A stretch of DNA of 64,000 bases, from contig CAVUWD010000013.1 of NCBI GenBank assembly GCA_963745025.1, forward strand, positions 288,001 through 352,000, written 5' to 3'. The notes beneath the pieces are model-generated. The model ran no database searches. It was not told the origin of the DNA and saw nothing but the letters and a program-made list of their open reading frames with translations. This DNA comes from an uncultured delta proteobacterium. Its GTDB lineage: Bacteria; Desulfobacterota; Binatia; JACPRU01. Of the stretch, positions 20,644 to 44,592 are shown piece after piece (within the stretch, counting starts at the first letter, position 1; each line of letters begins with the position of its first letter). The translations under genes were made by a program, and so were the position numbers.

Positions 20644-21815
20644 AGATTCTCTACGTCGCCTCGGACATCGCTCTGTCGGCGACGCACGGCGGAGCCGTCC
20701 ACGTGCGTGAGGTGGCCGGCGGTCTCGCCGCGCTCGGCCACTCGGTTCACGCCGTAGTGAAGGGCCTCCCGGGCGAGCAGGCGCGCTCGGTCGAGGCCGG
20801 CTTCGAGGTGCGGCGCGTGCTCCACCACGTTCCGCCGCGCATGCTCCGTCTGCTCGCGCTGCCCGCCGTGGCGCGCGAGGCGCGGGAGCTCGAGCCCGAC
20901 GTCGTCATCGAGCGCTATTACAACTTCGGCGGCGAAGGCGTGCTCTGCGCTGCGCGCCGCGGCATCCCCGTGGTGCTCGAGGTGAACTCGCCGATGGTCG
21001 AGTACGCGGGCTCGCCGAAAGAGCGGCTCGATCGGCTGATCGGCTCTCCGCTGCGGCGCTGGCGGGAGCACCTGGCGCGAAGCGCGGTGGTGTTCGTCAC
21101 CCCGACTGCGGCGATCCTGCCCGAGTTCGTTCCGGCCGAGAAGGTGCACGTGCTGCCCTGGGGCGCGAACACCGATCGCTTCCGGCCCGACGTCGAGCCG
21201 GCGGCGACGCCCCTGCCTGTGGGACGGCCCGTCGTCGCGTTCGTCGGCAGCTTTCGGCCGTGGCACGGCGCGCGCACGCTGGTCGAGGCGGCCACGGTGC
21301 TTCGGCGCCAGGGCCGCCACGCTCCGCTCTTCCTGATGATCGGCGACGGCCCGGAGCGCGCGGAGATCGAGGCGCTGGTGCGCAGTCGCGGCCTCGCCGA
21401 CGACTTCCGGTTCGTCGGCTCGCTCGCGCACGCCGAGGTCCCTGGGTACCTGCGCCGGGCGACGATCGGCGTCGCCCCGTTCGAGACCCGCCGGCACCGC
21501 TACCTGGAGATCGATTTCTACTGGTCGCCGTTCAAGATCCTCGAATACATGGCGATGGCGTTGCCGGTTGTGACGATCGACGTGCCGGCGCTGCGCCGCC
21601 TGGTGCGCCCGGGGATGGAGGGGCTGCTCTATCCCGAAGGCGACGCGACGGCGCTCGCCGACGCGTTCGGCGAGCTGCTCGATTCGCCGGAGCGAGCCCG
21701 CGCTCTAGGGGCTTCGGCCCGGCGGCGCGCCGTCGAGGAATTCTCCTGGCGCGTGCATTGCGCCGCGCTCGACCGCATTCTGCGAGCGCTCGTGCTCGGC
21801 AGCGATCCGTCGTAG
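20640..21815 (+). CDS. Glycosyltransferase family 4
   Basis: TTG start overlapping the previous stop; LEVNSP, FVGSFRPWHG, SPFKILEYMAMALPVV. Confidence 0.88.
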   Translation: MKILYVASDIALSATHGGAVHVREVAGGLAALGHSVHAVVKGLPGEQARSVEAGFEVRRVLHHVPPRMLRLLALPAVAREARELEPDVVIERYYNFGGEGVLCAARRGIPVVLEVNSPMVEYAGSPKERLDRLIGSPLRRWREHLARSAVVFVTPTAAILPEFVPAEKVHVLPWGANTDRFRPDVEPAATPLPVGRPVVAFVGSFRPWHGARTLVEAATVLRRQGRHAPLFLMIGDGPERAEIEALVRSRGLADDFRFVGSLAHAEVPGYLRRATIGVAPFETRRHRYLEIDFYWSPFKILEYMAMALPVVTIDVPALRRLVRPGMEGLLYPEGDATALADAFGELLDSPERARALGASARRRAVEEFSWRVHCAALDRILRALVLGSDPS

Positions 21816-22150: not shown

Positions 22151-23548
22151 CTAACGGAATTCCATCTCACGCACGTCGGAGGCCACCTGCAGCGGGGCGG
22201 CCGTCGCGCGCCGTACGTCGTCGACGCTGACTCCGGGTGCGACTTCGCGAAGCACGAACCCGCTGCCGCGGACGATCTCGATCAGCGCGAGGTTCGTCAC
22301 CACCTTGGAGACGCAAGCGAGCGCGGTGATCGGATACGTGCACTCGGCTACCAGCTTCGACTCGCCGTTCTTCGACGTGTGATACATGAGTACGATGACC
22401 TCGCCGCCGCCCGCAGCGAGATCCATCGCGCCGCCGATCGTCCCGGCGCGCTGATGCGGCGCCTTCCAGTTGGCGAGGTCGCCGTTGCCCGCGACCTGAA
22501 AGCCGCCGAGCACGATCTTCGCGACGTGCCCGCCGCGCGCCATCGCGAACGAGTCCGCCGAATGGAAGAACGACGCGCCAGGCAGCGTGGTGACCAGCTG
22601 GCCCCCGGCGTTGTAGAGATCGACGTTTTCTCGGCCGGGCTCGGGGAAAGGGCCGTAACCGAGGACTCCATTTTCGGCGTGCAGCACGACGCCTCTCCCG
22701 TGGACGTAGTTCGAGCATTGCGTGGGCAACCCGATGCCCAGGTTCACGACGTCTCCCTCGTGGAAGAGCGCCGCCGCCCGCATCGCCATCAGGTCGGCGG
22801 GGATGCCCGGCAGACCAGCCGCTTCGGGCGCCTGGCGACCCAACTTGCGGATCATCTCGATGAGCTCCGAACGCTCCATCCGGACGGTGGCGCGAAACAC
22901 GCGATCGACGAAGATTCCGGGCGTGACGACCGCCTCGGGGTCTAGATCACCGAGGGCGACGATCTCGTCCACTTCCGCGATCGTCCGCTTGGCGCCCATC
23001 GCCCAGATGGGATTGAAGTTTCGACTGCCTCCCCGAAAGACCAAGTTCCCCGCGGGATCCGCCGCGGCGGCGCGCACCAAAGCCACGTCAGCCCGGATCG
23101 CGCGCTCGAAGACCACCCGGCGGCCATCGATCTCACGGACTTCCTTGCCACGCTCGATCTCCGTACCGACGCCCGTCGGGGTGTAGAACCCGGCGATCCC
23201 GGATCCGCCGGCGCGCACGCGCTCGACCAGCGTACCCTGCGGCACGAGCTCGAACTCGACCTCGCCGCGGCCGATCATCTCCTCGGCCGGCGTCAAGCGG
23301 TAGGGAAAGCCGCCGAAGGACGCCACCAGCTTGGCGACTTGCCCGTTCTCGAAGAGGATCTGGGGCGAGGACGGACCGAAGCCCGGAGTGTTTGCGATCA
23401 GCGTGAGCTTGCGCGTGCCGCGATCGCGAAGCGCCTCGATGGCGCTCGAGGGCCAGCCCTGGAGCACCCCGAAGCCACCGATCGACACGATGGCGCCGTC
23501 TTCGATTCCCTCGACCGCGAGCGCTGGGGATTCAACGACCTTGTTCAT
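22151..23548 (-). CDS. 3-oxoacid CoA-transferase, fused alpha+beta subunits (family I)
   Basis: ELVPQGTLVERVRAGGSGIAGFYTPTGVGT, NLGIGLP, catalytic AENG, GGAMDL. Confidence 0.92.
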   Translation of the reverse strand: MNKVVESPALAVEGIEDGAIVSIGGFGVLQGWPSSAIEALRDRGTRKLTLIANTPGFGPSSPQILFENGQVAKLVASFGGFPYRLTPAEEMIGRGEVEFELVPQGTLVERVRAGGSGIAGFYTPTGVGTEIERGKEVREIDGRRVVFERAIRADVALVRAAAADPAGNLVFRGGSRNFNPIWAMGAKRTIAEVDEIVALGDLDPEAVVTPGIFVDRVFRATVRMERSELIEMIRKLGRQAPEAAGLPGIPADLMAMRAAALFHEGDVVNLGIGLPTQCSNYVHGRGVVLHAENGVLGYGPFPEPGRENVDLYNAGGQLVTTLPGASFFHSADSFAMARGGHVAKIVLGGFQVAGNGDLANWKAPHQRAGTIGGAMDLAAGGGEVIVLMYHTSKNGESKLVAECTYPITALACVSKVVTNLALIEIVRGSGFVLREVAPGVSVDDVRRATAAPLQVASDVREMEFR

Positions 23549-23647
23549 GATAGCAGACCCTCGGAGCGGCAACCGAAACGTCGTCGGCCTACTGAAGTAT
23601 CGTATCTCATATCTTGGTGTGGAAGTGAGACATCGTGCCCTACTAGC

Positions 23648-24289
23648 TCATTCCGCGTCCGGCTGCACTTCGGGGCGCGCCTTGGCGAAGGCGGGCAGGC
23701 TCTCGAGAGATTCGCTCACGCGGACCAGCACGGGATACGGAGCGAGATCCACCGCGAAGCGCCGCGCGTTGTAGACCTGCGGCACCAGGCAGACGTCGGC
23801 CAGGGTGACCGCGTCGCCGAAGCAATGCCTGCCGTCCCCCGTATGCTTGCCGATCGATTGCTCGAGCGCCCGGAAGCCTTCGGCAATCCAGTGCCGGTAC
23901 CAGAGGCTCGTCGCGTCCTCGTTCTGCCCCATCTGCGACTTGAGATAGTCGAGCACGCGCAGATTGTTCAATGGGTGCATGTCGCAGGCGATCGCCTGCG
24001 ACATGGCGCGCACCCGCGCGCGATCCGCCGGACTCGCTGGGAGCAGGCGCGGCGTCTCCGGGTAAGCTTCCTCGAGGTACTCGAGGATCGCCAGCGACTG
24101 GGAAACCACGACGCCATCGTCGTCGAGCGCCGGGATCAATCCCTGGGGATTGACCGCCAGGTACTCGGGCTTCCGGTGCTCGCCGCAGCGCAAGTGCTTG
24201 GCTACGTACTCGTACGCGAGGCCCTTCACTTCGAGCGCGATGCGCACGCGGTAGGCGGCGGAGCTGCGGAAATAGGAATAGAGCTTCAT
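23648..24289 (-). CDS. maiA: Maleylacetoacetate/maleylpyruvate isomerase (GST zeta)
   Basis: MKLYSYFRSSAAYRVRIAL, ACDMHPLNNLRVL, LADVCLVPQVYNARRF. Confidence 0.93.
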   Translation of the reverse strand: MKLYSYFRSSAAYRVRIALEVKGLAYEYVAKHLRCGEHRKPEYLAVNPQGLIPALDDDGVVVSQSLAILEYLEEAYPETPRLLPASPADRARVRAMSQAIACDMHPLNNLRVLDYLKSQMGQNEDATSLWYRHWIAEGFRALEQSIGKHTGDGRHCFGDAVTLADVCLVPQVYNARRFAVDLAPYPVLVRVSESLESLPAFAKARPEVQPDAE

Positions 24290-24315
24290 CGTCCTCTCGT
24301 CGGCGGAAGCAGGTT

Positions 24316-25014
24316 TCAGCCTGTCCCGGCTTGGATCGTCGTCACAAGCGTGTCGAGGCCTTCGACTGCGCCCTCCATGCGGTCGCCGGGCTTGACCGGG
24401 CCGACGCCGGCGGGCGTTCCGGTGTAGATGAGGTCGCCCGGCGCCAGCTCGAACAGGGCCGACAGCTCGGCGATCAGCTCGGGTACGCCCCAGATCAGCT
24501 CGCGGACGTCCGCCTTCTGACGGATCTCGCCGTTGACCGCGAGCCAGATCGCGCCGCTTGCGACGTGCCCGCCGTCGGCGACGGGCCGGATGGCGGTGAT
24601 CGCCGCCGAACGATCGAACGCCTTGCCCGTGTCCCAGGGGCGGCCCTTGTCTCGTGCCTCGAGCTGCAGATCGCGCCGGGTCAGATCGTTTCCCACCGCA
24701 TAGCCGTAGACGTGATCCAGCGCTCGAGCAACCGCAACGTCACGACCGGGCGCACCGAGGGCGACCACCAGTTCGATCTCGTGGTGGAGGTTCCTGGTGC
24801 GCGTCGGGTAGGGGATCGTCGCGTGGTTCGCGACGATCGCGTCCGGCGGCTTGGTGAAGAAGAACGGCGGCTCGCGCGTCGGGTCCTTGCCCATCTCGCG
24901 GGCGTGCGCCTCGTAATTGCGCCCGACGCAGTAGATGCGATGCACGGGAAATCGCTCGCTCCGACCCTTCACCTCGACGGAGGGCCGCTGCGGCGGCGTG
25001 AAGACGTATGCCAT
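24316..25014 (-). CDS. Fumarylacetoacetate hydrolase family protein (fumarylpyruvate hydrolase-like)
   Basis: IYCVGRNYEAHAREMG, HHEIEL, DLTRRDLQ, GDLIYTGTPAGVG. Confidence 0.92.
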   Translation of the reverse strand: MAYVFTPPQRPSVEVKGRSERFPVHRIYCVGRNYEAHAREMGKDPTREPPFFFTKPPDAIVANHATIPYPTRTRNLHHEIELVVALGAPGRDVAVARALDHVYGYAVGNDLTRRDLQLEARDKGRPWDTGKAFDRSAAITAIRPVADGGHVASGAIWLAVNGEIRQKADVRELIWGVPELIAELSALFELAPGDLIYTGTPAGVGPVKPGDRMEGAVEGLDTLVTTIQAGTG

Positions 25015-25029
25015 CCCTGTCTCCTCTCG

Positions 25030-26457
25030 CTACTGCGCTCTGAGGTCCTTCACCCGCTTCGCCTTGAACTCGGTCTTCGGCAGCGAGCCGGGTGCGACGA
25101 TCTCCACCACCGGACGGAGTTCGCAGCGCGAGACGATCTCCGACTCGACCGCGCGGCGCAGCGCTTCGCAGCGGCCGCCATCGAGCGCGGCGCCGGGCTC
25201 CACGAGCACGGTCAACACGTCGAGCTCTCGTACACGCGTGACGCGGATCTCGAACTCGTCTCCGGCCTCGGGGACGCGGCGGATCGCATCTTCGATGTTG
25301 CTCGGGAAAAGCGTTACGCCGCGCACGTTCAGCATCTCGTCGGCGCGTCCGAGGAAGCCGCCGAGCGCCCGCGGATGGCTCCGACCGCACGCGCAGCGTC
25401 CTCCCTGAAGGACGGTGAAGTCGCCGACCAGGAAGCGGAGCTGCGGCGAGGCCTCGGAGATCAGGTTGGTCGCGACCGAGAGCCCGCGTTGTCCCTCGGG
25501 CACCGGACGGAGCGTATCGGGATCGACGGTCTCCCAGATGTGAGCGTCGGCCATCAGGTGCGTGGCGACCGAACCCTGCTTGGCCCGGGCGATTGCGCTG
25601 CAGGTGTAGCCGCCGCCCGCCGGGGCCGCCTCGGTGCAGCCGTAGAACTCGTGCAGCTCGGCATTCCATGTCCTCTCGAGGCGCTCGCGCGTCGCGGGGA
25701 CACCGAAGCCCGGCTCGCCGGCACAGAAGAGGAAGCGCACCGCCGTCGCGGCCGGGTCGATCCCCGTCTCGCGCATCACTCCGGCGAGATACAGAGCGTA
25801 GGAGGGCGTACAGCAGAGAATCGTCGGCGCATAGTCGTGGATGAAACGAGCGCGAGTCCGCGTGTCGAGACCGCCGCCGGTGACGATCGGGATGCCCATC
25901 AAGTTGAGCGCGTAGTGGACCCCCCAGAGCCACACGTGCGGCCCGTAGCCGAAGGCGAGCAGCGCCGAATCGCGACCCGGCCGGAATCCCATGGCCCACA
26001 TCGCCCGCGCGTTCACCCACGCCCACATGCGGCGATCGAACTGCGTGTAGCGGAAGAGCCGTGGGCGCGACGTGGTGCCGGAGCTGGCGAACGTCTGCCA
26101 GCCGCTCTCGCGCCAGCGCCGGTCGTCGACGGACGTGTACGTTCCCCACGGCGGATTCGCCGCCACGTCTTCGGCCATCTCCTGCTTCGTCGTGACCGGG
26201 ATCTTCACGAGGTCGTCGAGCCCGCGGATGTCACCGGGTTCGAGGCCGATCGCATCGAACTTTCGGCGGTAGAAGGGGATGCATTCGTAGACGAACCGCA
26301 CGGCCACGACGAGCTTCTCGCTCTGAATGGAGCGGATCTCGTCCGCCGACGCGAAGTCGAGCGCGGGCGACCACGCATCGGCGGAACCGGGCCGTTCGAG
26401 ATCCTGCTGGAACCGGACGATCGTTCCGAGCCACGCGTTGCGGATCGAGTCCGTCAT
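25030..26457 (-). CDS. Phenylacetate-CoA ligase (PaaK)-like aryl-CoA ligase
   Basis: ASSGTTSRP P-loop, GEPG, EFYGCTE, GRADEMLNVRGV, LPKTEFKAKR. Confidence 0.85.
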   Translation of the reverse strand: MTDSIRNAWLGTIVRFQQDLERPGSADAWSPALDFASADEIRSIQSEKLVVAVRFVYECIPFYRRKFDAIGLEPGDIRGLDDLVKIPVTTKQEMAEDVAANPPWGTYTSVDDRRWRESGWQTFASSGTTSRPRLFRYTQFDRRMWAWVNARAMWAMGFRPGRDSALLAFGYGPHVWLWGVHYALNLMGIPIVTGGGLDTRTRARFIHDYAPTILCCTPSYALYLAGVMRETGIDPAATAVRFLFCAGEPGFGVPATRERLERTWNAELHEFYGCTEAAPAGGGYTCSAIARAKQGSVATHLMADAHIWETVDPDTLRPVPEGQRGLSVATNLISEASPQLRFLVGDFTVLQGGRCACGRSHPRALGGFLGRADEMLNVRGVTLFPSNIEDAIRRVPEAGDEFEIRVTRVRELDVLTVLVEPGAALDGGRCEALRRAVESEIVSRCELRPVVEIVAPGSLPKTEFKAKRVKDLRAQ

Positions 26458-27566
26458 CCCCAGATGGCCCGCGCGCCGGCCACCACGAGACCGAGCTTCG
26501 CGCGCATGTCCGCCTCGCTGACGGGATTGCCGGCGACCGTGCTGGCGAAGCCGCACTGTGGGCTGAGCGCGAGGCGATCGCCGTCGACGTACCGCGCGGC
26601 CTCCGTCGCCCGGCGCTTCAGCAGGTCGATGGGCTCGAGCGCGGCGACCTTGGAGCTGACCATGCCGAGAACCACACCCTTGTCCTTCGGCACGAAGCGC
26701 AACGGCGCGAAGCCGCCTGCGCGCGCCGTGTCGTACTCGAGTAGAAAATGGTCGACGTTCGCCCGCTGGAAGAGCGCCTCCGCGACCGAGTCATAGCCGC
26801 CCTCGGAGAGGTACAAGCCTTTGTAGTTGCCGCGGCACATGTGGACGCCGATGACGAGGTCCGCGGGACGGTTGGCGACGGCCTGATTGATCGCGTCGAC
26901 GTAGAGCTCGACGAGCGAGTCGGGGTCCTGCCCCCCTGCCGCCACCGTATCGCGCACGGCCGGGTCGCAGAGCATCGCCAGCGGTACCTCGTCGAGCTGC
27001 ACGTACTGGGCCCCGGCGGCCGCGAGCGCAGCGATCTCCTGTCGGTAGACTTCGGCGAGGTCGGCGAAGAACTTCTGCGCGGTTTCGTAAACGCCAGGAT
27101 CGGCATACTGCGCTCCGCGGTAGAAGTGCAGGGTCGACGGCGATGGTAACGTGACCTTCGTGATCGCTCGGGTTAGGCCTCGGACGAACGCGACTTCGTC
27201 GACCGCGATCGGCTGCCCGCGACGGACCTTGCCGGTCACGTGCGGCCCAGTGAAGTCGAGTACACGGCCCTGGTCGTCGCGAAAGGTGAACACCGCCGGC
27301 TTGACGGCCAGGCCTTCCGTGAGCTCGACGAACCGGCCCCAGTACGAACCGCGTCGGAACTCGCCGTCGTTCACGACTTCGAGGCCGACGTCCTCTTGGA
27401 GCTTGACGATGTCGCGGATCGCGGCGTCCTGAATGGAGTGAAACTCCTCGCGGCCGAGCTTCCCGGCGTTGAAGTCGCGAAACGCTTGGCGGAGCGTCGC
27501 CGGACGGAGAAGGCTGCCGATGTGGTCGGCACGAACGGGCGGACGGCCGTGGGTCGCTGACACCAT
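26454..27566 (-). CDS. Cobalamin-independent methionine synthase II-like protein (single-barrel MetE core)
   Basis: RADHIGSLLRP, DGEFRR, Zn-ligand motifs HMCRGN, LEYD and PQCGF. Confidence 0.9.
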   Translation of the reverse strand: MVSATHGRPPVRADHIGSLLRPATLRQAFRDFNAGKLGREEFHSIQDAAIRDIVKLQEDVGLEVVNDGEFRRGSYWGRFVELTEGLAVKPAVFTFRDDQGRVLDFTGPHVTGKVRRGQPIAVDEVAFVRGLTRAITKVTLPSPSTLHFYRGAQYADPGVYETAQKFFADLAEVYRQEIAALAAAGAQYVQLDEVPLAMLCDPAVRDTVAAGGQDPDSLVELYVDAINQAVANRPADLVIGVHMCRGNYKGLYLSEGGYDSVAEALFQRANVDHFLLEYDTARAGGFAPLRFVPKDKGVVLGMVSSKVAALEPIDLLKRRATEAARYVDGDRLALSPQCGFASTVAGNPVSEADMRAKLGLVVAGARAIWG

Positions 27567-27569
27567 CGC

Positions 27570-28490
27570 TCAAGCCGCTCTGTTCGGGGACGTTCCGCTC
27601 TTGCTTCCCTCGCCGTTCCTGGCGGTTTTCGATGCAGGCGAAGCGCCCGTGAAACGTTCGTCTTGCTCGACGATCTCGGCGACCCGTTTCTCCGCGGCAG
27701 GGCCGAGCCCGCGGAAGAGCTCTGCGAAGAGAGCGCGCGCTTCTCGCCGCGGCCAATCGGCAGGCAGGAACGCGTCGGGGAGGTCCGGATCGACGCGCGG
27801 GAATTTCCGCCATTCGTCCATGACCCGCGTGCGCATCACGAGCGCCTCGCGAGCCGTGATCCTGCCGGCGCGCATCCGCGCCCGCACCGGCCGAAACCGT
27901 TCGAGGTAGCGGACGTACGACTCGCGGAGCGAATCGAGATCCCAAGCTTCCCGGAAATCGCCGGGCCTCGAGCCCCAGCTCGGCACGATGCCCTTGAACA
28001 CGGTCATATTGTGGATGCCGAGATCGTCGAGGGCCTTCGCCGCCTCCTCGAGATGGGGATGGGGCGAGATCCACAGCCCCGGATAGAGCGGCCCGAAGCC
28101 CAGCCAGCGAAGCCGGGTGCGCAGCAGGTGGCGACGGTCGCGATTCGCCTCGGCCACCGAGAACGCCACCACCGACCACGTCCCGTCCCATCGCGCCTGC
28201 TCCAGACCGAAGCGAAAGATCCGCTTCGCGCCCTCGTCGAGGAGCGCAAGGCCCCGGTTCGTGAGGCCGTACGAGGTCCGGCGCCCTCGGCGCGATCGCG
28301 CGAGAAGGCCCCGCCGGACGAGTCGGCTGAGCGCGGAGCGAGCGCCGTTCGCGCTCACGCCGAACTCGGCGAGCAGACGCAGGAGCGCGGTCGAGGGGAT
28401 GTGCTCGGTTTTCCCGCGCCAGTGGTCGCCGAGCAGCGTGACGAGGAGTCGTTGCGGCTTCGCGCGCGGCCGGTCGTCGGCTCTCTTCAT
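27570..28490 (-). CDS. PaaX family transcriptional regulator
   Basis: LLVTLLGDHW, RSALSRL, WDGTW, LRWLGFG, EWRKFPRVDPDLP. Confidence 0.9.
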   Translation of the reverse strand: MKRADDRPRAKPQRLLVTLLGDHWRGKTEHIPSTALLRLLAEFGVSANGARSALSRLVRRGLLARSRRGRRTSYGLTNRGLALLDEGAKRIFRFGLEQARWDGTWSVVAFSVAEANRDRRHLLRTRLRWLGFGPLYPGLWISPHPHLEEAAKALDDLGIHNMTVFKGIVPSWGSRPGDFREAWDLDSLRESYVRYLERFRPVRARMRAGRITAREALVMRTRVMDEWRKFPRVDPDLPDAFLPADWPRREARALFAELFRGLGPAAEKRVAEIVEQDERFTGASPASKTARNGEGSKSGTSPNRAA

Positions 28491-29560
28491 CGCGGTTGGA
28501 ACCGCTCGCGGATCTTCTGCGGCTCGTCGAGCCGCGCTTCCCGAAAGAGCGCGAGTCGCTCGAGGAGCGGGCGATCGTCGATCGTGAAGAGGTCCGCGGG
28601 CTCGGCGGCCTGGTGTTCGACGGCCGCCCACGAAGGAGCGACGAACGAATCGCCGGTTGCCCACTCGAGCTCGACGCCGTCGACGACCGAGACGCCGCGA
28701 CCGCGGAAGACCACGTACACGGAGCTGCCGACTTTGCGGACGGGCCGTGTGCGCCGGCCCTCGAGAAGCCGCGTCATCTCGCAGCCGAGGGTCGGCAGCG
28801 CGGCCTCGCCCGTCAGCGGATTCACGTAGCGAAGCGTCGCCATCGGTTCGCGGCTCTCCGTAAGCAGCGCGGCGAGCGACGCGTCGGTGTCTCGCCAGCG
28901 GTAGACGAGCAGGGAGTGCGGCGCCTCGTGTCGCGCGTCCGCCGGGATCGTGGCGCGGCCGCCAACCGCGCGCTCGGAGACGTTCCGACCGCGCACGGCT
29001 TGCGCCGCGTCGGGGTGGGGCTCGAAGAACACGGCGTCGAGCGCGATCACGGTGGGCATGTCGAGACCATCGAACCAAATCATCGGCCGGTCGCTCCCGT
29101 TCTTGTGATCGTGCCAGCACCAGCTCGGCGTGAGGACGAGGTCGCCGGGCGCCATGTCGCACGCGTCGCCGTCGACGGTCGTCCACGCGCCTTCGCCCTC
29201 CATCACGAAGCGAATCGCACCCGGCGAGTGCCGGTGGGCGGGGGCGGATTCCCCGGGGCCGAGGTACTGAAACGCTCCCCAGAGCGTGGAGGTCGCGAAC
29301 GGCAACCCGCCGAGGCCCGGGTTGGAGAGCGAAAGCACTCGCCGCTCACCGCCTCGTTCGATCGGAACCAGCCGGCCGGCGCGCTCGCAAAGCCGGCGCA
29401 CGGCTTGCCACTTCCAGAGCCAGGGCCGCGTGGCGGGCGTGGGCTCGTCGGGCATCAGATTCCGTGTCTGCGTCCAGAGCGGCTGCAGATCCAGCGCGGC
29501 GACGTCCGCGTAGAAACGATCGAGCTCGCGCTCGTGATCCGTGGCGGAAACCAAGCCCAT
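28487..29560 (-). CDS. Gentisate 1,2-dioxygenase-like bicupin
   Basis: ERRVLSLSNPGL, APAHRHSPGAIRFVMEGEG, GDLVLTPSWCWHDH, WFDGLD. Confidence 0.9.
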   Translation of the reverse strand: MGLVSATDHERELDRFYADVAALDLQPLWTQTRNLMPDEPTPATRPWLWKWQAVRRLCERAGRLVPIERGGERRVLSLSNPGLGGLPFATSTLWGAFQYLGPGESAPAHRHSPGAIRFVMEGEGAWTTVDGDACDMAPGDLVLTPSWCWHDHKNGSDRPMIWFDGLDMPTVIALDAVFFEPHPDAAQAVRGRNVSERAVGGRATIPADARHEAPHSLLVYRWRDTDASLAALLTESREPMATLRYVNPLTGEAALPTLGCEMTRLLEGRRTRPVRKVGSSVYVVFRGRGVSVVDGVELEWATGDSFVAPSWAAVEHQAAEPADLFTIDDRPLLERLALFREARLDEPQKIRERFQPR

Positions 29561-29592
29561 CCTACCAATTTATCCCACTTCTCGGTGAGGGT

Positions 29593-29608
29593 CGCAACGT
29601 ACTTTGCG
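29593..29608. promoter_or_regulatory. Candidate operator palindrome in the divergent promoter
   Basis: CGCAACGTACTTTGCG, imperfect dyad, next to TTGACG. Confidence 0.3.
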
Positions 29609-29727
29609 GATCGCTTGACGAGGGTATTCTTCAGTGCAAAAGACTTCGACTCCGTGGGCTCGCCGGAGAGGATCCGCGAGACGCGGCGAATGCGAGCCCG
29701 AGCCTGAGCCGACCGCGACTTCGCAGC

Positions 29728-30399
29728 GTGCTTTCCTCGCGCGATTCGAGCGCGCCCGCCGTCGTGCCGCTCATCGAGGCGCATGCGGCGCGTCTCGAGC
29801 AGCTTTCCGACGATCGCTGGTCCGCCGACGCGGAGGCGCAGGCGCGCATGCTCCGCTCCGTCCAGGCGCTCTATGGGCTCGATGCGGTGACGGTCGGAGC
29901 GCGAGGCCTCGCCGCCGCCGCGCGAGAATGCCGAGCGCTCGGGCCGGCCTCGGTCGGGGAGATGGCGAGCGTCACATTGGCTCGCGACGTCATCCGCCGG
30001 CTGCGGTCTGTTCTTGGTGAACGAGCGGGCATTGCGGCGGTGCTTCCCGACGCCTCCCGCCTCGCTTCACTGCTCGGGGCTCCGGGCGAGACCGCATGGG
30101 CCAGCGCCGTTCTCGCCGAGCTCGTGCGCGCCGTCGGCCCCGAGGAGCCGGATCTGATCCTCCTCTGCGGCGACGACCCCGTCGATCCGACGCTCGAGAC
30201 GATCGCCGAATTCTTCGGTGCGTCGTTGCTGCCGATCGGCCGCTCGGCTCCTGCAGGAATGGTGGCCGTTACGCAGGCGGAGTTGATCCGCGGCGATTTA
30301 CCGCCCGGCTGGCTCTACACGACGACCACCGAGATCGAACCCGCGGCCGACCCGGCGACCGTTCGAGCGGCGATCGAGCGTTTGCGGGGCCCGCGATGA
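29728..30399 (+). CDS. Hypothetical protein, possibly a reduced URO-D/MtaA-like barrel (start uncertain)
   Basis: PAVVPLIEAHAARL..., QALYGLDAV and C-terminal TTTTEIEP resemble URO-D-fold proteins; its stop overlaps the next ATG (ATGA). Confidence 0.5.
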   Translation: MLSSRDSSAPAVVPLIEAHAARLEQLSDDRWSADAEAQARMLRSVQALYGLDAVTVGARGLAAAARECRALGPASVGEMASVTLARDVIRRLRSVLGERAGIAAVLPDASRLASLLGAPGETAWASAVLAELVRAVGPEEPDLILLCGDDPVDPTLETIAEFFGASLLPIGRSAPAGMVAVTQAELIRGDLPPGWLYTTTTEIEPAADPATVRAAIERLRGPR

Positions 30400-31628
30400 G
30401 TGTCGACCCGCGCTCGCGCCATCGCCCCGTGATCGTCGTCGGTGCCGGGCCGGTCGGCTTGAGCGCGGCGTTGGCCGTTCGAGCCGCAGGCCTCCCGGCG
30501 ACGATACTCGAGGCGGGGCCGGAGAACCGGCTCCGCCCCGGAAGCCGTGCGATCTACATCCATGGCACGACCCTCGAGACACTCGAGCGCGTGCACGCCG
30601 GCCTCGGCCGGCAGCTCGCCGAGCGCGGCGTCGTATGGCCGACCCGGCGCACGCTCTGGCGCGGTCGCGAGGTGTTCTCGCGCACGTACGATCCGGCCCC
30701 GAAATCGAAATTGCCGCACTTCACGAGCCTCCCGCAGACCCAGGCCGAAACGCTTTTTCTCGAGGCGTGCACGCAAGACGGGGTGGAGCTCGTCTGGGGC
30801 GCTGCCGTCGCGGGAGTGGACTCGCGCGCCGACGGAGTGACGATTCACCTCGCTTCCGGGGACGGGTGGACGGCGGATTACCTCGTGGGTGCGGACGGCG
30901 CTCGCTCCGCCGTGCGCCAGGCGATCGGAGTCGAGCTCGAGGGCAACTACTCGGTGAATTCCTACGTGATCGTCGACGTCGCGGAGGATCCGAGCGAACC
31001 CCTCCCGGTCGAGCGCGTCTTTCACTACGAGCACCCGGCGGTCGGCGGTCGAAACGTTCTACTGGTGCCGTTCGCTGGGGGTTGGCGCGCCGACCTGCAA
31101 TGCAAAGAAGACGACGATCCGGAGGCATTCAGCAAGCCGGAAGGCGCTCGTGCCTGGGTGGCGAGCACGCTCGGCGAGAGGTACGGCGGGCGCGTGACCT
31201 GGGTCTCGACCTACCAGTTCCTGCAGGTGATCGCCCAAAGCTTCGTCGATCGCAATCGTCGCGTCCTGCTGGTCGGAGAGGCGGCGCACCTGTTCGCTCC
31301 CTTCGGCGCTCGAGGCATGAACTCCGGAATCGCCGACGCCGCGGCGGCAGCGACCGCCATCAAAGCAGCGATCGGCGCGCGTTACACGGCGGCGGCGTCG
31401 GCGGCGATCGATGACTTTGCGCGCGAGCGTCACGCGGCCGCGGAATGGAATCGGGCGGCGGCGGGCGAAGCGCTCGCGCACTTGCAGGCGCACACGCCGT
31501 GGCGGCGCGTCAGGCGGATCGCCGCCGTACTCGCCGCGCCGTGGTGGCCGAGAGCTGGACAGTGGCTGGACACCGCGCCCTACGGGCCGCGCGGCGGACC
31601 CCCGACGGCGGGGCGTACGAAGTACTGA
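30396..31628 (+). CDS. FAD-dependent aromatic monooxygenase (MhpA/PHBH class A)
   Basis: GAGPVG, GADGARSAVR, VGEAAHLFAPFGARGMNSGIAD. Confidence 0.88.
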   Translation: MSVDPRSRHRPVIVVGAGPVGLSAALAVRAAGLPATILEAGPENRLRPGSRAIYIHGTTLETLERVHAGLGRQLAERGVVWPTRRTLWRGREVFSRTYDPAPKSKLPHFTSLPQTQAETLFLEACTQDGVELVWGAAVAGVDSRADGVTIHLASGDGWTADYLVGADGARSAVRQAIGVELEGNYSVNSYVIVDVAEDPSEPLPVERVFHYEHPAVGGRNVLLVPFAGGWRADLQCKEDDDPEAFSKPEGARAWVASTLGERYGGRVTWVSTYQFLQVIAQSFVDRNRRVLLVGEAAHLFAPFGARGMNSGIADAAAAATAIKAAIGARYTAAASAAIDDFARERHAAAEWNRAAAGEALAHLQAHTPWRRVRRIAAVLAAPWWPRAGQWLDTAPYGPRGGPPTAGRTKY

Positions 31629-31788
31629 GCAATCGAGCCGGTGTTTCCGGCCTCTCCCCTCGCAGCGACGCCCTGCGCCCCGGGGCGAGACGTCACCGTC
31701 TTCCACGGATGCCGTTGTCGCGGATGATGCGCACCTCGACCGCCCACGGGCAACTATTGACGGAACGGCGCCCGCAAGTGTCGCCGCG

Positions 31789-32919
31789 TCACACGATTGC
31801 GCGCGCCGCGGCGAGCCCGTCGACCTCCTCGCTCTTGAACCCCCAGTCGCGAAGCACCTCTCGGGTGTGCTGTCCGGGGATCGCGGGGGGGCGCTGCACT
31901 CTGCCCGGCGTACGGCTGAAGCGCGGAGCGGGTGCCGGCTGGACGACGCCTTCGACCTCGACGAACGCCTTTCGCCGGGTGTTGTGCGGGTGCGCGGGCG
32001 CCTCCTCGAGGGCGAGCACGGGCGCGAAGCACACGTCGGAGCCTTCCATGACCCGGCACCACTCATCGCGCGTCTTGGTGCGGATGACCGCCGCGACGCG
32101 CTCCTTCAGCGCCGGCCACCGCGCGCGGTCGTTCTGCGCCGGCAGGTCCTCCTTGTCGAGGCCGCTCAGGCGGAGCAGCTCCGCATAGAACTTCGGCTCG
32201 ATCGAGCCGAGTGAGACGTACTTTCCGTCACGGGTCTCGTAGGCGTCGTAGAAGTGGGAGCCCGTGTCGAGGAGATTCGTCCCCGGCTCGTCGGTCCATA
32301 TGCCCGCTGCACGCATCTCGTAGAACATCGTCATCAGGTGCGCGGCGCCGTCGACCATCGCCGCGTCGACCACCTGCCCCTTGCCCGAAGTCCTCGCTTC
32401 GAGCAGTGCCGACAAGATGCCGACCGCCAAGTAGAGCGCTCCGCCGCCGAAGTCGCCGACGAGGTTGAGCGGCGGGACGGGCTTCTCGCCGCGGCGCGCG
32501 CAGGAGCGGAGCGCGCCGGTGAGGGCGATGTAGTTGATGTCGTGGCCGGCGGCGAGGGCGAGCGGGCCCTCTTGCCCCCACCCCGTCATGCGGCCGTAGA
32601 CCAGGCGCGGGTTTCTCTTCAGGCAGACGTCGGGCCCGAGACCGATTCGCTCCATCACGCCCGGGCGGAATCCCTCGGTCAACGCGTCCGCCCGCTCGAT
32701 CAGCCGCAGGACCGCCTCCACCCCCTTCGGGTTCTTGAGGTCGACGGCGACCGAGCGACGGCCGCGCAGCAGAACGTTGGGAACGCTTCGTTTGCCGGCG
32801 ACCTCGAGCCGATCGATGCGAACGACTTCCGCTCCGAGGTCGGAAAGCAGCATCGCGCAGAACGGCCCCGGGCCGATTCCCGCGAACTCGATGATCTTGA
32901 TTCCAGCCAGAGGGCCCAT
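31789..32919 (-). CDS. CaiB/BaiF family alpha-methylacyl-CoA racemase-like protein
   Basis: [37 protein letters not shown]. Confidence 0.92.
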
Positions 32920-42077: not shown

Positions 42078-42219
42078 TCAGCGCCCTTCACATTGAGCCG
42101 CACCTTTCAAGCTGCGCGACGAGTCGGTATCCGCGCGCCGCTCGAGCCTTGAAGCAAACGAGCGTCTTGGCGTAGAGTCCGCGCTCCCGAAGGCCGGGGC
42201 GCGCAAGATCGCAAGATCG

Positions 42220-44592
42220 ATGGAACGACGAGGTGCTCTCGAGGGTCTACGGGTACTCGACCTGACGGACGAAACCGGGCGGCTCGCCGGAAAGTTGCTC
42301 GCCGAGACCGGCGCCGACGTGATTCGACTTTGCCGCGGCGTGCCGGGCCCGCCGATGAAAGGCGTGGCGGGCGGCCGAGGGGGCCTGCTCGATTGGTGGT
42401 TCGATCTTGGAACCCGGAGAATCGAGCTCGACCTCGACGACGAAGGCTGCCGACGGCAGCTCCGCGCCCTGGTCGCGCGCGCCCACGTCTTCATCGAGAC
42501 CGAGCCCCCCGGCCGCCTGGCGCATCTCGGTCTGGACTTCGACGATCTGCGAGCGCTGAATCCGCGGCTCGTCCACGTGTCGCTCACGCCCTTCGGGCGC
42601 CGCGGGCCGCGCGCCGGCTGGCAGGTGAGCGATCTCGTCGCTTCCGCTCTCGGAGGACCGCTCTCGATCAGCGGCACGCCCGACGAGCCGCTCAACGGAT
42701 ACGGCCGGCAGTCCTTCAACATCGGCGGATTCTTCGCCGCCATCTGCGCGCTCGCGGGCGCGCATGCGGCGCGTGAGACCGGGCAGGGTCGACACTTCGA
42801 TCTCTCTCTCCACCAGAGCGTGGCGAGCTGCACCGAGCAGCTCCTCATGTATTGGTTCTTCCGCCACACGATCTTCTTCCCCGGCGGCATCGCCAAGCGA
42901 CAGGCAGCGCTTCACTGGACGGGCCTCTTCGACGTGGTGCCGTGCCGCGACGGCCACGTCATGATGACACCCTCTCCGAACCCACGAAATCTGTTCGATT
43001 GGCTCATCGAGGAAGGCATGGCCGGCGCGTTCGCCGAGGCGGTGCCGACGACGGTGGCGGAAGCGCTCCCGCGCGCGGCCGAGATCATGGCCACGCTTCG
43101 CGCCTGGGCGAAGACGAAGAGCGTCCGGCCGCTTTTCGAAGAAGCGCAGCGGCGTCGCATTCCGCTCGGCGAAGTGATGTCGATCGCCGAGGCGGCTCGA
43201 TCGCCGCAGCACGAAGCGCGCGGCTTCTTTCGTGCCGTCGCGTGGGACGGTGCCCCCCTGCGCGTTCCGGGGCCGCTCTTCCGGCTGTCCGACACGCCGG
43301 CGCCGCCTCCGACCCCCCCGCCCGCGATCGCAGATTCTGTCGATTCGGTGCTCGCGTCGTGGCCTCAGGAGCGCGGTGGCGAAGGTGCCGCTTCGTCGGC
43401 GAGTGCGCCAAGGAAGCCGCTCGCAGGGGTGAGGATCCTCGATTTCACCTGGGTGCTCGCCGGCCCGATGGCGACTCGCGTGCTCGCCGATCTCGGCGCC
43501 GACGTCGTGAAGCTCCAGACCGAGGAACGCTCGCAGGGGGTGAATCACAACGACTTTCCGTACTTCTCGATGTGGAACCGGAACAAGCGGAGCGCGACGC
43601 TCAACATGAAGCACCCGCGCGCCGTCGAGACGTTTCGCCGCCTCGTCGAGCGGTCGGACGTCGTCATCGACAACTTCAGCGCGGGCGTGCTCGACCGCTG
43701 GGGTATCGGCTACGCGCAGGCGAGCGAGTGGAATCCGCGGATCATATACGTCTCGCTGCCGGGCTGTGGCCGTGACGGCCCGTGGCGCGACTTCGTCACG
43801 TTCGCACCGACGATCCAGGCGCTCTCCGGGCTCACGTACTTGACGAATCCCGAAGGCCGCCACGACATCGGCTTCGGCTTCGCCCTCATGGATCACTTCG
43901 GCGGTCTGAGCGGCGCGCTCGCGGTCCTGGCTGCGCTCGAGGCCCGCCGGCGAACGGGCCGCGGCCAGGACGTCGACATTTCCCAAGTCGAGGTCGGCGT
44001 GCACTTGCTCGGGCCGACCTTCAGCGACTATCTCAACAACGGCCGCGAGGCCGAGCCGATCGGCAATCGCGATGCCTTCGAGGACCACGCCCCGAACGAG
44101 GTCTATCGCTGCGGGGATGGCGAGTGGCTGGCGATCACCGCTCGATCCGACGCGGAATGGCAAGCGCTCTGCGCGACGATCGGCGACGCTCGCCTCGCGG
44201 ACGACGAGAGCCTGCAGACCGTCGCCGGCCGACGGCGCGAGCGCCGCCGCGTCGACGAGCGACTGGGCGCCTGGGCGGCGGGCCAGACGGCGCGGGGCGC
44301 GATGCAGCTCCTGCAAGAGCGCGGCGTGCCCGCCGGCAAAGTGCAGAATGCCCGCGACCTCGTGGAAGAGGACGAGCAGCTGACGTTTCGCCGGTGGCTC
44401 GTCGAGGTGGAGCATGGCTCCCACGGCCGACAAACGATCGACCGATTTCCCGCGGAGGTCACTCCGGGCGCTCTCGACCCGTACGCGGGGGCGCCCACCT
44501 TCGGACAGCACACGCTCGAAGTGTACGAGGAGCTCGCCGGGATGTCGGTCGAGGAGATCGCTGCCGCGATCGGCGAAGAGATCTTCAGCTGA
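42220..44592 (+). CDS. CaiB/BaiF CoA-transferase with two tandem domains
   Basis: Two LxGxRVLD(L/F)T starts, GPMATRVLADLGADVVK, NRNKRS, DNFSAGVLDRWG. Confidence 0.9.
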   Translation: MERRGALEGLRVLDLTDETGRLAGKLLAETGADVIRLCRGVPGPPMKGVAGGRGGLLDWWFDLGTRRIELDLDDEGCRRQLRALVARAHVFIETEPPGRLAHLGLDFDDLRALNPRLVHVSLTPFGRRGPRAGWQVSDLVASALGGPLSISGTPDEPLNGYGRQSFNIGGFFAAICALAGAHAARETGQGRHFDLSLHQSVASCTEQLLMYWFFRHTIFFPGGIAKRQAALHWTGLFDVVPCRDGHVMMTPSPNPRNLFDWLIEEGMAGAFAEAVPTTVAEALPRAAEIMATLRAWAKTKSVRPLFEEAQRRRIPLGEVMSIAEAARSPQHEARGFFRAVAWDGAPLRVPGPLFRLSDTPAPPPTPPPAIADSVDSVLASWPQERGGEGAASSASAPRKPLAGVRILDFTWVLAGPMATRVLADLGADVVKLQTEERSQGVNHNDFPYFSMWNRNKRSATLNMKHPRAVETFRRLVERSDVVIDNFSAGVLDRWGIGYAQASEWNPRIIYVSLPGCGRDGPWRDFVTFAPTIQALSGLTYLTNPEGRHDIGFGFALMDHFGGLSGALAVLAALEARRRTGRGQDVDISQVEVGVHLLGPTFSDYLNNGREAEPIGNRDAFEDHAPNEVYRCGDGEWLAITARSDAEWQALCATIGDARLADDESLQTVAGRRRERRRVDERLGAWAAGQTARGAMQLLQERGVPAGKVQNARDLVEEDEQLTFRRWLVEVEHGSHGRQTIDRFPAEVTPGALDPYAGAPTFGQHTLEVYEELAGMSVEEIAAAIGEEIFS

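Follow-up and report, generated by a model that had tools for sequence, protein, structure and literature searches.

The window analysed here is a stretch of 64,000 nucleotides (nt) from the genome of an uncultured delta proteobacterium of the Binatia, a soil bacterium (GenBank assembly GCA_963745025.1, contig CAVUWD010000013.1, positions 288,001 to 352,000), and its subject is a gene cluster in which genes of gentisate-type ring cleavage are joined by a PaaX-family regulator, a coenzyme A (CoA) ligase and a single-barrel zinc protein resembling the methionine synthase MetE (the MetE-like protein). The window has about 68% G+C, and reading frames were therefore picked through the GC content of codon positions and then by family searches; codon-position GC backs the called frames, with values of 0.80-0.86 at third positions (GC3) in most of the operon genes. 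An earlier note on this DNA had named the run of genes from the dioxygenase to the 3-oxoacid-type CoA-transferase together with a divergent pair, and Pfam and NCBIfam searches recover all of them where they had been placed. The family III CoA-transferase at the end of the list lies beyond the coordinates of that note and is an addition. The features are as follows, with lengths in amino acids (aa).

28487-29560, minus strand: gentisate 1,2-dioxygenase-like bicupin, 357 aa, first gene of the operon (Pfam Cupin_2, twice)
27570-28490, minus strand: PaaX-family transcription regulator, 306 aa (Pfam PaaX, PaaX_M, PaaX_C)
26454-27566, minus strand: single-barrel MetE-like Zn protein, 370 aa, NF005085/PRK06520 subfamily (PF01717, NF005085)
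25030-26457, minus strand: PaaK-like acyl/aryl-CoA ligase, 475 aa (AMP-binding and AMP-binding_C_2)
24316-25014, minus strand: FAH-family hydrolase, fumarylpyruvate-hydrolase-like, 232 aa (PF01557)
23648-24289, minus strand: GST-zeta protein, like glutathione-dependent maleylpyruvate isomerase (MaiA/NagL-like), 213 aa (TIGR01262)
22151-23572, minus strand: fused ScoA-ScoB (subunits A and B) family I CoA-transferase of 3-oxoacid type, 473 aa (PF01144, twice)
29561-29703, no strand: control region separating the two divergent operons, in which a block of about 85 base pairs (bp) beside the cupin start is conserved
29704 (CTG) or 29728 (GTG) to 30399, plus strand: ApcE-like small protein of URO-D fold (AlphaFold2 model and Foldseek)
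30396-31628, plus strand: group A aromatic monooxygenase dependent on flavin adenine dinucleotide (FAD), 410 aa (PF01494)
31789-32919, minus strand: family III CoA-transferase, 376 aa, convergent with the monooxygenase gene (PF02515, 282.5 bits)

The tight coupling claimed for the minus-strand run is borne out among its first four genes: the cupin and PaaX genes share 4 nt where the first stops and the second starts, a gap of 3 nt separates the PaaX stop from the MetE-like start, and the MetE-like stop overlaps the start of the PaaK-like gene by 4 nt. The remaining gaps, down to the ScoAB gene, are 15, 26 and 75 nt, and on the plus strand the stop of the small gene overlaps the start of the monooxygenase gene (30396). 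The flanking genes (glycosyltransferases, a LysM protein, an amidase, a hydrolase, a cytochrome and a protease) are unrelated, which delimits the catabolic unit to approximately 22151-32919; the region is a real, well-delimited catabolic cluster.

The MetE-like protein belongs to a subfamily of its own. It scores 336.4 bits against NF005085 (cut-off 313) over model positions 5-368 of 368, and its closest match in the Protein Data Bank (PDB) is 1YPX (251.9 bits), a structural-genomics protein without an assigned function. Two better-defined families were considered and rejected. Two-barrel MetE, which has about 750 aa and an N-terminal folate-binding barrel, is ruled out, as the window protein has 370 aa and lacks that barrel; against TIGR01371 it reaches 62.7 bits over model positions 427-648 only, with a cut-off of 929.95. 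Membership of MesD is ruled out by a score of only 53.4 bits to the MesD structure 3RPD and by the neighbourhood, which holds PaaX and the ligase and no DUF1852 (MesX) gene, the rest of the genome not having been searched for DUF1852. All four Zn ligands, which the earlier note had read as intact, are present (H242, C244, E277 and C338), and S18, E69 and D192 align with the homocysteine-binding Ser22, Glu73 and Asp188 of 3RPD. A search with the protein returned 7651 matches at E <= 0.001 among 8000 candidates; the Zn and homocysteine residues are kept in all 120 close homologues (119 for C338) and in 37-39 of 39 distant ones (38-39 for the Zn ligands), where the remainder are alignment gaps. 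The equivalent residues of Escherichia coli MetE are H641, C643, E665 and C726 for Zn and S433, E484 and D599 for homocysteine, and in the available part of Price et al. methionine-synthase function is defined by four Zn ligands together with the Ser, Glu and Asp that hold homocysteine (PMC7857596). Judged by these residues, the MetE-like protein most probably binds homocysteine; it is not the housekeeping synthase, and its gene arrangement predicts expression with the catabolic operon. The conserved triad argues for an amino-acid thiol, rather than coenzyme M (CoM), as its probable thiol partner.

The genome is a metagenome-assembled genome (MAG), 92.65% complete with 7.6% contamination. It encodes a complete MetH (1483 bits), with which the MetE-like protein is not needed as a housekeeping synthase; no full-length MetE was found in the same genome, and searches for S-adenosylmethionine and B12 riboswitches came back empty for the window region and for eight homologous loci. 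Two more matches to the MetE catalytic domain, both of 68.5 bits, lie elsewhere in the genome (G000:C17:50609-51607 and G000:C11:243037-244035) and may represent duplication or MAG contamination.

Eighty loci from reference genomes were anchored on the MetE-like protein, and three of them carry the whole cluster: L031 (92% identity), L033 (75%; its MaiA-FAH-ligase block is inverted) and L086, which has the gene order of L033 and in which the cupin, PaaX and MetE-like genes are broken by several frameshifts. The ApcE-like and monooxygenase genes of this last locus are likewise split across frames (L086:8059-11114 and 1-1298), with MaiA, FAH, ligase and ScoAB intact; the split genes could reflect partial decay of the cluster or local assembly errors. 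A metagenome contig (L119) has MetE-like, PaaX and cupin genes, with the small gene pointing the other way. In all five homologous clusters (the window, L031, L033, L086 and L119), and in two gene orders, the MetE-like gene comes directly after PaaX and is no stray. The genomes bearing window-type clusters are labelled Candidatus Binatia or 'delta proteobacterium'; because they are related, retention in five of five could on its own be a matter of inheritance. Paralogues of the MetE-like protein in this lineage adjoin an aromatic-ring hydroxylase (in L146, which is the window's own genome, and in L147), an FAD monooxygenase (L150) and a luciferase-like monooxygenase (L148).

Outside the lineage, the next closest MetE-like homologues share 61-76% identity; most belong to MAGs that bear the label Burkholderiales or betaproteobacteria, and several to MAGs labelled Alphaproteobacteria (Hyphomicrobiales, Xanthobacteraceae, Reyranellaceae). 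In a FastTree phylogeny of 96 sequences the window clade is nested among Burkholderiales-labelled sequences, within a clade of 23 that has support 97, and a gentisate 1,2-dioxygenase (GDO) gene lies within 11 kilobases (kb) in 10 of those 23. Neighbours were counted by tblastn with representative proteins, as a gene-calling script based on GC3 had missed genes, in 40 loci of at least 61% identity and in 40 loci below 50%; many contigs are short, so that the counts are lower bounds. Of the 40 close loci, 26 have a CoA ligase (AMP-binding or PaaK-like) no more than 7 kb away, as against 2 of the 40 distant ones, and a GDO is present in 8/40 and 0/40, respectively. In L045, the MetE-like gene, whose product scores 318 bits against NF005085, stands between an operon ending in a true GDO (544.6, cut-off 442.1) and a set comprising MarR, a ligase of the benzoate-CoA-ligase family and a salicylyl-CoA 5-hydroxylase (1127.8, cut-off 1078).

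An even sample of Burkholderiales yielded a MetE-like homologue at E <= 1e-120 in 4 of 201 genomes. The top GDO match is on the same contig as the MetE-like gene at 3.8 kb in G448, 10.2 kb in G465 and 2.8 kb in G564, and on another contig in G574; in G448 and G465 it is the only GDO match of the genome. An SdgC-type gene is found at a distance of 5-8 kb in G448, G465 and G574. In G564 the MetE-like gene (52%) is divergent from MaiA-DctQ-DctM-GDO, an operon that includes a TRAP transporter, with a second MetE-like gene (42%) just beyond. The ligases and hydroxylases near Burkholderiales-labelled MetE-like genes are mostly of families other than those of the window; the exception is a ligase in G465, divergent from the MetE-like gene, which is 52% identical over its full length to the PaaK-like ligase. 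That members of the MetE-like clade are associated, in several different arrangements, with gentisate and aryl-CoA genes is the chief new finding.

Other neighbours of MetE-like genes were also recorded. At L045:11062-12834, and at the same position in L047 and L048, a dehydratase of the IlvD/Edd family (NF004784, 819.5 bits) directly follows the MetE-like gene within the sdg-type gentisate cluster. A PF12281 (NTP_transf_8) protein directly follows it at L041:11207-12367, and in L038, L043, L059 and L063, which are arranged like L041, an AMP-ligase match begins some 0.9-1.3 kb downstream. A distant MetE-like subfamily (L071-L110, about 40 loci, 39-48% identity) occurs mostly in Comamonadaceae, Rhodoferax, Limnohabitans and MAGs of Vulcanimicrobiota. 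Its MetE-like genes lie in most cases 12-119 bp from a gene for a Liv-type solute-binding protein, often with TctC and sometimes as two paralogues, and neither a CoA ligase nor a GDO was found nearby; this subfamily probably uses a different methyl donor.

The lower half of the pathway can be assigned with some assurance. The cupin scores 298.6 bits against the GDO equivalog TIGR02272, below the cut-off of 442.1, and is consequently a divergent member. Its best PDB matches are the salicylate/gentisate dioxygenase structures 3NST and 2PHD (284-286 bits), and its N-terminal domain aligns with 2PHD without gaps. The Fe ligands H109, H111 and H150 correspond to H119, H121 and H160 of 2PHD, and R117, H152, D164 and Q98 to R127, H162, D174 and Q108, which contact the substrate; Ala occupies the position of Gly106, which we take to be the gentisate-type state. 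The FAH protein has as its top PDB matches 4MAQ, a 'putative fumarylpyruvate hydrolase' (292.7 bits), and 6J5Y (266.4 bits), with only 23 bits to the fumarylacetoacetase model. The isomerase passes the maiA model TIGR01262 (289.4 bits, cut-off 171.05), and scores 212.8 bits to the maleylpyruvate isomerase structures 2JL4/2V6K, which we take to be NagL of Ralstonia sp. U2, as against 162-176 bits to maleylacetoacetate isomerases. These similarities strongly support a predicted lower half of ordinary, known gentisate catabolism, as the earlier note had proposed.

The upper part is less conventional. PaaX has all three PaaX Pfam domains and scores 171.5 bits against TIGR02277 (cut-off 264.55); its domains mark it as a probable family member, for which an aryl-CoA is the likely ligand. 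The ligase reaches 250-255 bits against the PaaK equivalogs, far under their cut-offs (for TIGR02155, 250 against 646.3), and its best PDB match is the 2-hydroxyisobutyryl-CoA synthetase 6HDW (233 bits), followed by PaaK (218 bits). The ScoAB transferase exceeds the cut-offs of both TIGR02429 (242 bits) and TIGR02428 (256.4 bits) and travels with the cluster in L031, L033 and L086. The family III CoA-transferase adjoins the pair of ApcE-like and monooxygenase genes in L111 (96% identity) and is also present in L031. With a ligase, a PaaX-family regulator and two CoA-transferases at hand, the CoA-dependent upper part suggested in the earlier note is plausible. Family III domains occur once more in the window, in an 831-aa protein encoded at 42097-44592 on the plus strand, which has two of them (537.6 bits, in two stretches).

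The FAD monooxygenase scores 246 bits against NF006002, which is under the cut-off, and only 23 bits by BLASTP against a member of NF006101, the SdgC type; by sequence it is unrelated to SdgC apart from the FAD fold. Its homologues, of about 410 aa and 57-88% identity, include a few labelled Actinomycetota, Chloroflexi, Alicyclobacillus and Halorussus.

The small protein encoded upstream of the monooxygenase matched no Pfam or NCBIfam family, and its 72 homologues are all hypothetical or unnamed by label. An AlphaFold2 model (pLDDT 93.8) submitted to Foldseek gave as top match ApcE (9FOU; E 1.9e-11, TMq 0.79, 21% identity), with uroporphyrinogen decarboxylases behind it (TMq about 0.69), so that its earlier description as URO-D-like was right at the level of the fold. 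On this model it is best described as ApcE-like, after the epsilon subunit of acetophenone carboxylase. The function of the ketone-carboxylase epsilon subunit is itself still unknown according to one report (PMC13677872). Eighteen loci on metagenome contigs were anchored on the ApcE-like protein, mostly too short to hold a whole cluster. Homologues of the protein precede a window-type monooxygenase in L111, L112, L113, L116, L126 and L031, follow genes of hydantoinase/acetophenone-carboxylase type in L113, L118 and L125, and adjoin ligases 53-55% identical to the window ligase in L114, L117 and L118. In a phylum-level sample of 401 genomes it was found in one only, the window's own. Contigs of identical length (28500, 93636, 12363, 259314 and 1277191) among the sources of further MetE-like, monooxygenase and ApcE-like homologues hint that these genes may occur together on one contig in more cases. 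There is no hydantoinase gene in the window cluster, and the nearest Hydantoinase_B match lies about 21 kb past the end of the window. The genome has 11 Hydantoinase_B matches, one of which has, some 2.7 kb away, an ApcE-like match of very low similarity (E 1.7e-5; G000:C16:383919-391745; L139, L145). A complex prediction for the monooxygenase with the ApcE-like protein gave a score of 0.10 and a mark of 0.32, which speaks neither for nor against a complex.

At the start of the small gene, the GTG of its relatives is replaced by CTG in the window (29704), and the next in-frame GTG is at 29728. Alignment of the control region with L031 and L119 reveals that the block of about 85 bp beside the cupin start is almost invariant and may hold promoters or an operator. 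The window lacks approximately 150 bp of divergent intergenic DNA that is present in both L031:7750-8060 and L119:3109-3440 (window 29561-29740). No match to the sigma-70 consensus was found in the control region, and a search there for a PaaX operator gave only short, unconvincing inverted repeats. No Rfam family reached its gathering score between 20000 and 35000; the sole match at E <= 0.1 is a sub-threshold small RNA at 21722-21801, outside the control region.

Taken together, these observations suggest a PaaX-regulated unit that would feed an aromatic carboxylic acid into gentisate ring cleavage. The PaaK-like ligase would form an aryl-CoA, the likely ligand of PaaX, as the families and the gene coupling suggest; the FAD monooxygenase, perhaps aided by the ApcE-like protein, would hydroxylate this thioester, and one of the two CoA-transferases would remove CoA or hand it to fresh substrate. 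The steps of the lower pathway are the strongly supported ones, in that active-site residues and family scores point to a cupin that would cleave gentisate or a close analogue, a NagL-like isomerase that would convert maleylpyruvate with glutathione and an FAH protein that would hydrolyse fumarylpyruvate.

The novel part of the scheme concerns the MetE-like protein, in which Zn-bound homocysteine would take a methyl group from the incoming methylated aromatic. Candidate donors are 2- or 4-methoxybenzoate, 5-methoxysalicylate and the methyl esters of salicylate or gentisate; in broader terms, the donor would be salicylate, 4-hydroxybenzoate or gentisate in a methoxy or methyl-ester form. The products would be methionine and either a free phenol, for the flavin hydroxylase, or a carboxylate, for the ligase; group A flavin hydroxylases typically require a free phenol. 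The step would proceed without a folate domain, a corrinoid protein or an oxygenase. A chemical parallel may be drawn with MetE, which moves a methyl group from a poor leaving group, the protonated N5 of folate, to a Zn-thiolate; the proposed step would similarly involve attack of a Zn-thiolate on the methyl of a leaving group that needs protonation. The layout of G564, with a transporter, MetE-like, GDO and MaiA genes and no hydroxylase, suggests that in some clusters the product may be gentisate itself.

The scheme as a whole, in which a homocysteine-dependent demethylase would unmask a methylated substrate of salicylate or hydroxybenzoate type before this is activated with CoA, hydroxylated and cleaved as gentisate, is a tentative one, with somewhat less than an even chance of being right, and both its methyl donor and its substrate are ones that we infer. 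The demethylase role of the MetE-like protein is a testable hypothesis, held about as loosely as the scheme that contains it or a little more so. The wider proposal, that the NF005085 clade comprises cofactor-free aromatic demethylases acting on methoxy or methyl-ester forms of salicylate, hydroxybenzoate or gentisate or on their CoA esters, and that ApcE-like proteins serve flavin monooxygenases as accessory partners in addition to ketone carboxylases, is speculative and on balance unlikely to hold in full.

Several points weigh against the demethylation scheme. The choice of methyl donor is a matter of inference throughout, thiol-dependent aryl O-demethylation has, to our knowledge, no biochemical precedent, and the formation of stoichiometric methionine on a growth substrate demands a costly recycling of methionine to homocysteine. 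By sequence, the ligase is nearest to the structure of a 2-hydroxyisobutyryl-CoA synthetase, not to that of an aryl-CoA ligase, and the role of ScoAB is left without explanation. The loci stem from related MAGs and are not independent. The link to GDO is confined to 8 of the 40 close loci, and G451, which has a MetE-like homologue of 61% identity, has no GDO anywhere in its genome. The genes met most often beside MetE-like ones encode transporter binding proteins, CoA ligases and IOR-like oxidoreductases. Four loci (L035, L049, L050 and L052) also have a GcvT-family gene at a distance of 1-5 kb, accompanied by genes for an ABC transporter, an AMP-ligase and an IOR-like enzyme. Such neighbours would also fit methyl donors that are not aromatic.

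The alternative that survives best is that the MetE-like protein is a homocysteine methyltransferase whose donor has nothing to do with aromatics (a sulfonium, a betaine or some other onium compound, or another small metabolite) and that its gene owes its place in the operon to gene transfer or co-regulation only. Horizontal transfer would be consistent with the nesting of the window clade among Burkholderiales-labelled sequences. Moreover, solute-binding proteins are the most frequent neighbours over the two sets of loci (21/40 close, 31/40 distant), and the GcvT-family genes, as well as an AMP-ligase directly beside the MetE-like gene, which recalls the activation of thioether acids, may point the same way. 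Nevertheless, a passenger gene would hardly be expected to be translationally coupled so tightly between PaaX and the ligase, or to be retained in all five clusters despite rearrangement. GDO, SdgC and MaiA neighbours also recur in several arrangements, and for a genome of 4-5 Mb with a single GDO, simple arithmetic gives a chance below 1% per genome that this gene falls within 10 kb of any particular other one. We regard an unrelated donor as unlikely.

A second alternative concerns the start of the upper pathway, which might be an aroylacetate or a compound of hydroxyacetophenone type rather than a simple benzoate. In this scenario a 3-oxoacid would be activated by ScoAB or the PaaK-like ligase, shortened to an aryl-CoA and hydroxylated before gentisate cleavage, with the MetE-like protein acting as a demethylase or in some other role. 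It accords with a ScoAB that passes the 3-oxoacid CoA-transferase models, with the ApcE-like nature of the small protein and with those homologues that follow carboxylase-type genes or adjoin ligases 53-55% identical to that of the window. However, the cluster has neither a carboxylase nor a thiolase gene, and its ApcE-like gene is coupled to a monooxygenase and not to a carboxylase. Such a starting compound appears improbable.

Less probable again is that the MetE-like protein performs other chemistry, whether Zn-thiolate alkylation with CoA or glutathione in the manner of epoxyalkane:CoM transferase, dehalogenation or decarboxylation. The superfamily of UROD/MetE barrels does include decarboxylases and CoM alkyltransferases, and glutathione is already used in the operon by MaiA; the closest solved relatives of the protein, however, belong to the methionine-synthase family. 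The earlier note had the protein removing or transferring a substituent, and within that claim demethylation fits best, given the invariant Ser, Glu and Asp shared with MetE and MesD, whereas its CoM-transferase-like and decarboxylase options are not supported, and neither is action on the CoA ester in preference to the free acid or the choice of any one substrate. Finally, a route of homogentisate/phenylacetate type, in which PaaX and the PaaK-like ligase would serve a phenylacetate derivative, MaiA would be a maleylacetoacetate isomerase and ScoAB would activate acetoacetate, is very hard to credit despite the PaaX, PaaK and TIGR01262 names and the 3-oxoacid-type transferase, as the cupin keeps the active-site residues of gentisate/salicylate dioxygenases, the FAH protein is of the small fumarylpyruvate-hydrolase type and the isomerase is closer to NagL.

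Should proteins of the MetE-like clade take methyl groups from aromatics, this would have consequences beyond this cluster. Aryl demethylases include Rieske and P450 oxygenases, folate-dependent enzymes of GcvT type and corrinoid systems; the MetE-like clade would add a further mechanistic class, allowing demethylation of lignin- or plant-derived aromatics independently of oxygen, folate and corrinoid, and aromatic catabolism would supply one-carbon units straight to methionine. Thousands of MetE-like proteins of about 370 aa are annotated as ordinary methionine synthase, and for this clade the annotation would be wrong. Several folate-independent 'core' methionine synthases still lack a known methyl donor according to Price et al. 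(PMC7857596), and a natural donor would then have been identified for one family of them. The cluster also provides the first context for an ApcE-type protein outside carboxylase operons, and with it a simpler, two-protein system in which such a protein may be studied. A literature search, covering sources other than subscription journals and supplements, returned no report of a MetE-like protein in a gentisate or aryl-CoA pathway.

Among known systems, the closest counterpart of the lower pathway is nagIKL of Ralstonia sp. U2, whose three enzyme families recur here with their relative order (I...K-L) unchanged. The window differs in that PaaX, the MetE-like gene and the PaaK-like gene are inserted between dioxygenase and hydrolase, and in that its dioxygenase does not reach the cut-off of the GDO equivalog. 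The logic of the upper part, with a ligase, hydroxylation on the CoA ester, removal of CoA and gentisate cleavage, is that of the sdg route for salicylate and the phgABC route for 4-hydroxybenzoate, the latter likened through the description of the route only (PMC7862547). A true sdg-type set adjoins the MetE-like orthologue in L045, G465 and G574. The protein families are nevertheless different from those of the sdg route: SdgC (NF006101) is an FAD monooxygenase fused to a reductase of the old yellow enzyme type, of about 770 aa, whereas the window hydroxylase is a single-domain FAD protein of 410 aa; the ligase is PaaK-like and not of the benzoate-CoA-ligase family; and in place of a thioesterase, which is absent, there are two CoA-transferases.

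The MetE-like protein resembles the core methionine synthases MesA-MesD and MetE in its MetE-type barrel, a single one of about 370 aa, and in the conservation of a Zn site (HxC...E...C) and a homocysteine site (Ser/Glu/Asp); unlike them, it lies in a catabolic operon and in another subfamily (NF005085). Its residues suggest that it works like a core methionine synthase whilst being neither MetE nor MesD. ApcE (9FOU), the best structural match of the small protein, has a gene that shares its operon with three genes of hydantoinase type and a small one of gamma type, whereas the window gene, like its counterparts in five metagenome loci and L031, is coupled to that of an FAD monooxygenase. The earlier view of the cluster as undescribed stands in part: the lower half and the logic of the upper part match nagIKL and sdg/phg, but four proteins have no counterpart there, namely the ligase, the hydroxylase and the ApcE-like and MetE-like proteins. 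The lower pathway is thus a known one, and the upper part is a novel variation with two unusual components and with protein families other than those of sdg.

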